Of a DNA stretch of 64,000 nt, positions 58,550 through 58,665 are shown in pieces. This DNA is from Escherichia coli. Lineage in GTDB: Bacteria; Pseudomonadota; Gammaproteobacteria; Enterobacterales; Enterobacteriaceae. The position numbers were made by a program, and so were the translations under genes. The stretch's first letter is position 1. Every line of letters starts with the position of its first letter. Below the pieces are notes generated by a model that saw only the letters and a list, made by a program, of their open reading frames with translations, searched no databases and had not been told where the DNA came from. The stretch is taken from NCBI RefSeq assembly GCF_003334315.1, contig NZ_QOWR01000004.1; one strand, given 5' to 3'.

Positions 58550-58665
58550 TGCATCAAGGCGGCAAGTGAGCGAATCCCGATGAGCTTACTCAGGTAAGTG
58601 ATTCGGGGGAGCGAACGCAGCCAAGGCAGAGGCGGCTTGAAGGATGAAGTGTATATAAAGAATGT
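58550..58665. repeat. ERIC/IRU-like intergenic repeat
   Basis: Contains aggtaagtgattcgggggagcgaacg, closely matching the ERIC2 core AAGTAAGTGACTGGGGTGAGCG, and gtgagcgaatcccgatgagcttac resembling the complement of ERIC1R; lies between puuR and puuC. Confidence 0.6.

Follow-up and report, generated by a model that had tools for sequence, protein, structure and literature searches.

The window analysed here, a whole stretch of 64,000 nucleotides from Escherichia coli contig NZ_QOWR01000004.1 (RefSeq assembly GCF_003334315.1), carries puuD, puuR and puuC on the same strand, with a repeat element in the spacer between puuR and puuC. The stretch from 55015 to 61015 around this site differs from E. 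coli K-12 MG1655 by four substitutions and one extra base, and window coordinates there equal NC_000913.3 coordinates minus 1303985. The features of the spacer and its bordering genes are given below, 'filled' and 'empty' alleles being those with and without the repeat.

57926..58483, + strand: puuR coding sequence, with its stop codon at 58481-58483
58500..58524, + strand: REP-like GC hairpin, GCCGGGTAAGCGCAATGCGCCCGGC, separate from the ERIC and present in filled, empty and outgroup alleles
58529..58655, + strand: complete ERIC/IRU element of 127 bp including both TAs, as judged from the filled/empty alignment, other ERIC copies and the Rfam V_AS5 match
58529..58530, no strand: left copy of the duplicated target TA, from the empty versus filled junctions
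58531..58653, + strand: core of 123 bp, TACAC...GTGTA, with perfect 5-bp termini
58570..58591, - strand: ERIC1R primer site, 17/22 matching positions, the primer sequence being verified in the literature
58575..58608, + strand: predicted central hairpin with UCCCGA/UCGGGG and GCUUAC/GUAAGU stems, from the RNA fold
58592..58613, + strand: ERIC2 primer site, 18/22 matching positions, directly abutting the ERIC1R site
58654..58655, no strand: right copy of the duplicated target TA, from the filled/empty alignment
58656..58757, + strand: flank shared with empty alleles and not part of the repeat, containing a stop TAA, an ATG at 58662 and a 32-codon in-frame extension
58758..60245, + strand: puuC coding sequence of 495 aa (RefSeq annotation)

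The repeat is intergenic between two genes of the same strand, with a gap of 45 nt from the puuR stop codon to the element and of 102 nt from the end of the element to the puuC ATG. Its + strand is defined as the orientation in which the reverse complement of ERIC1R and then ERIC2 read 5′ to 3′, and this is also the sense strand for puuR and puuC.

The REP-like hairpin at 58500-58524, which lies 17 nt downstream of the puuR stop, is also conserved in E. albertii and E. whittamii, whilst Pseudocitrobacter has it in a more canonical form, GCCGGGTAAGCGAAGCGCCACCCGGC. It is a feature separate from the ERIC and older than it, and since no U-run follows, it is not a canonical terminator. On the other side of the repeat the puuC leader contains a GC hairpin of 5 bp when read on the + strand at 58679-58693; read on the - strand, the same segment with its tail to about 58669 resembles a terminator, a hairpin followed by a T-run (CGGGCCGTATGCCCG TTTATTTCTG), and no minus-strand gene ends there.

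Further upstream, puuA (glutamate-putrescine ligase; 55504-56923, - strand) is broken into two ORFs (56135-56923 and 55504-56133) because of one extra base at about 56141-56142 relative to MG1655 (tatgCCttttctg versus tatgCttttctg). This base occurs in none of the 4372 complete E. coli genomes that contain the stretch; it is thus a sequencing error or a frameshift confined to the source strain.

Boundaries and anatomy of the repeat

The limits of the repeat were set by aligning the filled allele of the window with the empty alleles of three E. coli genomes (O55:H7 USDA5905, WCHEC4533 and E67), which left a clean gap. The net insertion relative to the empty alleles is 125 bp (531 bp versus 406 bp for a segment that spans the spacer), and the empty junction AATC-TA-TAAAG corresponds in filled alleles to AATC-TA-core-TA-TAAAG. 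Written out further, the window reads ...GGCAATC-TA-(TACAC...GTGTA)-TA-TAAAGAATG... and the three aligned empty genomes read ...GGCAATC-(T/C)A-TAAAGAATG..., and removal of 58531-58655 from the window allele gives AATCTATAAAG. Counted together with the flanking TAs, the perfect termini of the core extend to 7 bp (TATACAC/GTGTATA).

The original prediction had described an imperfect palindromic element between puuR and puuC, and this description holds: the two outer arms of 27 nt each (58529-58555 and 58629-58655) are 74% complementary, and the element folds far better than shuffled sequence (z = -6.6). The interval first proposed for it, 58550-58665, was placed on the right site and erred at both ends, for the filled/empty alignment shows that the left arm had been clipped by 21 bp and the right end overshot by 10 bp.

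Family membership and insertion history

ERIC is a non-autonomous miniature inverted-repeat transposable element of Enterobacteriaceae, and its strain-to-strain polymorphism in E. coli has been surveyed previously. ERIC/IRU sequences were reportedly described by Sharples and Lloyd in 1990 and by Hulton and colleagues in 1991, and the E. coli copies are said to have been surveyed by Wilson and Sharp in 2006. In the present window, the matches to ERIC1R and ERIC2 listed above are each the single best match to the respective primer in all 64 kb, the runners-up reaching 14/22 for ERIC1R and 16/22 for ERIC2. The two sites are adjacent and divergent and lie at the centre of the element, as expected for ERIC, and the similarity to both primers that had been claimed from the letters of the window is thereby borne out. 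Both primer sequences were verified in the literature, where they are present together in 246 papers.

No second copy of the element was found inside the window. A sensitive blastn search of 5426 complete E. coli genomes located 46,508 places similar to the element, nearly all of them chromosomal; every one of the 5426 genomes has relatives of it, with 2-16 detectable copies each and a median of 10. Four further copies were fetched for comparison, three of them chromosomal (queA-acpH, yeiS-preT and rhlB-gppA) and one, in the ybtP-ybtA spacer, plasmid-borne. Across its full length (126-127 nt) the window copy is 83% identical to the queA-acpH copy, 79% to the yeiS-preT copy and 80% to the rhlB-gppA copy, and it is 87% identical to the majority consensus of these three, which itself matches the primers at 19/22 and 21/22 positions. 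All aligned ERIC copies have TATAC...GTATA ends. The window copy departs from the primer consensus at five and four positions, and part of this departure is a paired change of CCCCAGG/CTGGGG to CCCGATG/TTCGGG that is common to the rhlB-gppA copy.

Reviews describe ERIC as a MITE of 127 bp with a 7-bp terminal inverted repeat, a target-site duplication and 5′-TA-3′ termini (PMC2229807, PMC3184786). The element in the puuR-puuC spacer shows the same length, terminal repeats, TA duplication and central primer palindrome, the same intergenic location, a multicopy family of dispersed full-length relatives and presence or absence among strains, and no essential difference from ERIC/IRU was apparent. 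Judged from the primers, the copies found here and the review descriptions, it is a full-length ERIC/IRU element. The identification proposed originally stands, and the puuR-puuC ERIC is an ordinary and correctly recognized copy of an already known repeat.

The distribution of the insertion was followed in the same set of complete genomes. A 531-bp query that spans the spacer matched 4390 of the 5426 genomes, 2793 of them at full length; most of the remaining matches came as two pieces with a total of 406 bp, 125 bp shorter. A 60-bp probe across the empty junction scored 1500 genomes as empty and gave a match to the right flank only, the signature of a filled site, in 2794. About half of the complete E. 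coli genomes therefore carry an ERIC at this site, and the comparison among strains that had been suggested as a check finds the element polymorphic in the species (approximately 2793-2794 filled versus 1500 empty). By megablast puuC was detectable in 4371 of the 5426 genomes; in the other genomes, about 1055, neither puuC nor the puuR-puuC spacer was matched, and about one fifth of sequenced E. coli strains appear to lack the puu cluster.

Outgroups were taken from one scan of species-representative genomes, in which a degenerate PuuC N-terminal pattern picked out six loci. Two of these are from Pseudocitrobacter species, and the others are from E. albertii, E. whittamii, Escherichia sp. E1V33 and the divergent E. 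coli E69, which represents a GTDB species of its own. All six are empty at the puuR-puuC site and hence, by this comparison, the insertion is one that arose within the E. coli lineage. The outgroup junction is AATC-CA-TAAAG in four of the six loci, whilst E. whittamii has AATCAACAGAG and P. vendiensis GTCATAAAG.

Two empty forms occur, AATC-CA-TAAAG, the ancestral one, found in most outgroups and in about 1000 E. coli, and AATC-TA-TAAAG, found in about 500 E. coli, these counts being estimates from even sampling of the ranked empty-junction matches. The observed filled junctions are those expected if the element entered at the TA of AATC-TA-TAAAG. The TA within the ancestral CCA-TA-AAG was considered as a target as well and rejected, as it predicts AATCCA-TA...TA-AAG junctions, which were not observed. 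Since only AATC-TA-TAAAG fits as the ERIC target, the T-variant empty allele would be either a preserved pre-insertion allele or the footprint of a precise excision.

Haplotypes were compared over 2.1 kb of flanking sequence for seven E. coli alleles and four representatives (three other Escherichia species and E69). About 50 sites distinguish filled alleles from one another, and the allele in the window is most similar to an empty allele of the C variant. Mosaicism is strong in puuC, where alleles with the same ERIC insertion diverge by 2-3%. The element itself is at least 99% identical in 2791 of the 2794 filled genomes; such uniformity might point to constraint, but puuR and the spacer next to the element vary about as little.

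Transcription, folding and possible effects

The genes bordering the repeat belong to the PuuR-repressed puuDRCBE operon (PMC9397018), and a sigma-S-dependent puuCBE unit has been reported with a start mapped in vitro (Maciag 2011, PMC3141248). A consensus scan detected no sigma-70-like promoter inside the element, and no intrinsic terminator was detected on the + strand between 58484 and 58757; the sequence directly 3′ of the element, UAAAGAAUG, does not supply the U-run that follows the hairpin of an intrinsic terminator. Transcription of the element between puuR and puuC is plausible.

On the + strand the element is predicted to fold into one long interrupted hairpin of -52.5 kcal/mol, compared with a mean of -30.6 for shuffled sequences, and none of 200 shuffles folded as well. 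The - strand gave -37.1 kcal/mol (z = -4.0), the + strand fold being the stronger because several of the hairpin pairs are G-U on that strand. An alignment fold of four copies found compensatory changes at 9 of 41 predicted pairs, amongst them a C-G to G-C swap in the central hairpin relative to the other copies (pair 51-77). In a DNA palindrome such paired changes, taken alone, are no proof that selection acts on the RNA structure. When the whole spacer was folded, the ERIC formed an independent module between two smaller hairpins, both of which fold identically in an empty allele.

Read-through from the puuD promoter would transcribe the ERIC in the sense orientation, as an imperfect hairpin of about 125 nt. 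Starting 45 nt past the puuR stop, this hairpin would lie too far downstream for terminating ribosomes to melt it, and ending 102 nt before the puuC start it would be too distant to occlude the ribosome-binding site, so that an effect on puuC translation is unlikely. Given these distances, the ERIC would most likely have no consequence, or would modestly alter how the polycistronic mRNA is processed or degraded, in which case the hairpin might serve as a barrier to 3′-exonucleases for the puuDR part or as an entry site for an endonuclease. From the sequence we infer that the ERIC would be near-neutral and co-transcribed with its neighbours. Taken as a whole, the locus is very probably explained by a full-length ERIC that inserted at a TA within E. 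coli and that would be transcribed as a hairpin with no or modest effect on the mRNA.

The alternative that survives best is that the repeat acts as a functional intercistronic RNA, in which cleavage by RNase E or RNase III, or a block to 3′-exonucleases, uncouples the levels of puuDR and puuCBE; we regard this as unlikely, although it deserves some weight. The sense orientation inside an operon, the very stable fold and its greater strength on the transcribed strand than on the opposite one are in keeping with such a role, as is the orientation of all four chromosomal copies inspected, each of which runs like the gene immediately downstream. There is also an operon precedent in Yersinia (Delihas 2008, PMC2229807), where ERICs act on mRNA stability according to that review's summary of De Gregorio et al. 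(2005). Like those copies, the present element lies between two operon genes and is predicted to form a long RNA hairpin, and by analogy an orientation-dependent effect may be possible. The destabilizing Yersinia ERIC, however, reportedly overlaps or adjoins the upstream stop codon, where ribosomes unfold the element and RNase E acts in a ribosome-dependent manner (this work being attributed to De Gregorio in 2005). The puuR-puuC element neither overlaps nor abuts its upstream stop, 45 nt separating that codon from the element start at 58529, and the ribosome-dependent RNase E mechanism is thus not expected here. Moreover, about 1500 E. coli genomes and all outgroups examined do without the element.

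A related proposal, to which we give slightly less credence and which we consider improbable, is that the three spacer alleles (CA-empty, TA-empty and filled) constitute a lineage-specific regulatory polymorphism that would operate by shifting the processing or decay of the puuDRCBE mRNA. If it were true, the PuuR : PuuCBE ratio and putrescine catabolism would be altered in about half of E. coli.

Far less probable is that the element supplies or modifies the sigma-S promoter of puuCBE, by way of an outward promoter or by serving as an upstream element, with a resulting change in how puuCBE is expressed in stationary phase. In its favour, in vitro mapping gave puuCBE a separate sigma-S start (Maciag 2011), and puuC begins about 100 bp downstream of the element. 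Against it, the consensus scan detected no pair of promoter-like hexamers, whether inside the element or directed out of it, and by eye the TTGAAG near the right end of the element stands 9-11 nt from the TATA-rich end, which is too short a spacing. The 102-nt stretch from the ERIC to puuC is, furthermore, identical in the three aligned empty alleles and nearly so in the outgroups, which suggests that the puuCBE promoter lies in the shared sequence. The ideas of a promoter carrier and of a terminator were both set aside as of low probability, the promoter and terminator scans having found nothing inside the element.

We also consider it very doubtful, more so than the promoter proposal, that the element is a small or antisense RNA gene in its own right, the reading to which its Rfam match with a Vibrio RNA might point. 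To our knowledge Rfam holds no ERIC family. The only match in an Rfam scan was to RF02818 (V_AS5, the Vibrio RNA AS5), at 58528-58651 with 44.8 bits and E = 3e-8. This match runs end to end over the 129-position model (positions 1-129) and both have the same long-hairpin architecture, but the score falls far below the gathering threshold of 96, the loop region of the element is 11 positions shorter, the organism is different, and a promoter and terminator bracketing the element are absent on both strands in the scan. By Rfam's own cut-off the element does not belong to the family. The match is most simply explained if V_AS5 was built on Vibrio ERIC-like repeats, and this suggests that what RF02818 represents is a repeat of the ERIC type, not a gene for a dedicated antisense RNA.

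That the feature is a chance palindrome or a REP/BIME unit and not an ERIC is refuted, for although it is GC-rich and palindromic and the REP-like hairpin at 58500-58524 adjoins it, its fold relative to shuffles (z = -6.6), primer matches unique in the window, thousands of full-length homologues and precise insertion anatomy leave this reading next to no probability. REP is a GC-rich hairpin of about 35 bp without terminal inverted repeats or a target-site duplication. REP/BIME and ERIC are both intergenic and palindromic, and REP/BIME can stabilize mRNA 3′ ends, whereas ERIC is 127 bp long and has a different consensus.

Comparable elements elsewhere include Correia/NEMIS in Neisseria and RUP in S. 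pneumoniae, which are small, non-autonomous and co-transcribed and have terminal inverted repeats and a TA duplication (PMC2229807, Table 1). They are unrelated to the present element as sequence families, and Correia elements carry IHF sites and promoters, none of which is evident in the puuR-puuC element. Returning to the ERIC as a near-neutral, probably co-transcribed insertion, its practical significance is little, though the site provides a clean natural pair of filled and empty alleles, together with a candidate pre-insertion allele, for following the effect of an ERIC on the fate of an operon mRNA.

The puuC start codon

The longest ORF containing puuC begins at the ATG at 58662 and encodes 527 aa, whilst in RefSeq puuC starts from the downstream ATG, giving 495 aa, in filled and empty strains alike; a Shine-Dalgarno sequence, AGGAG, precedes the downstream start at 58749-58753. 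The original prediction held that the longest ORF runs into the repeat, which is true only with the overshot right boundary: the ATG at 58662 lies 7 nt past the last base of the element, and the in-frame stop TAA at 58656-58658, the first triplet of the shared flank, stands between them. Nor can its further claim be upheld that the repeat creates a spurious N-terminal extension of puuC. The ATG, the 32 codons and the stop all lie in the shared flank, and the ERIC-less O55:H7 has the identical longest ORF of 527 aa (L001, 1708-3291), so that the repeat neither creates nor extends the N-terminal extension. For gene callers this means that the puuC start should be 58758, the in-frame ATG upstream of it belonging to the spacer and not to the repeat. 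No ERIC is annotated at this site in the RefSeq records examined.

Two of the other copies sit closer to their downstream genes. At queA-acpH (L006, ERIC at 601-736) the annotated acpH start is at 732, and at rhlB-gppA (L008, ERIC at 601-725) the annotated gppA start is at 724, in each case at or inside the right end of the ERIC. Going by these annotated starts, the repeat at both loci, unlike that upstream of puuC, contributes to the 5′ end or ribosome-binding region of the downstream gene.
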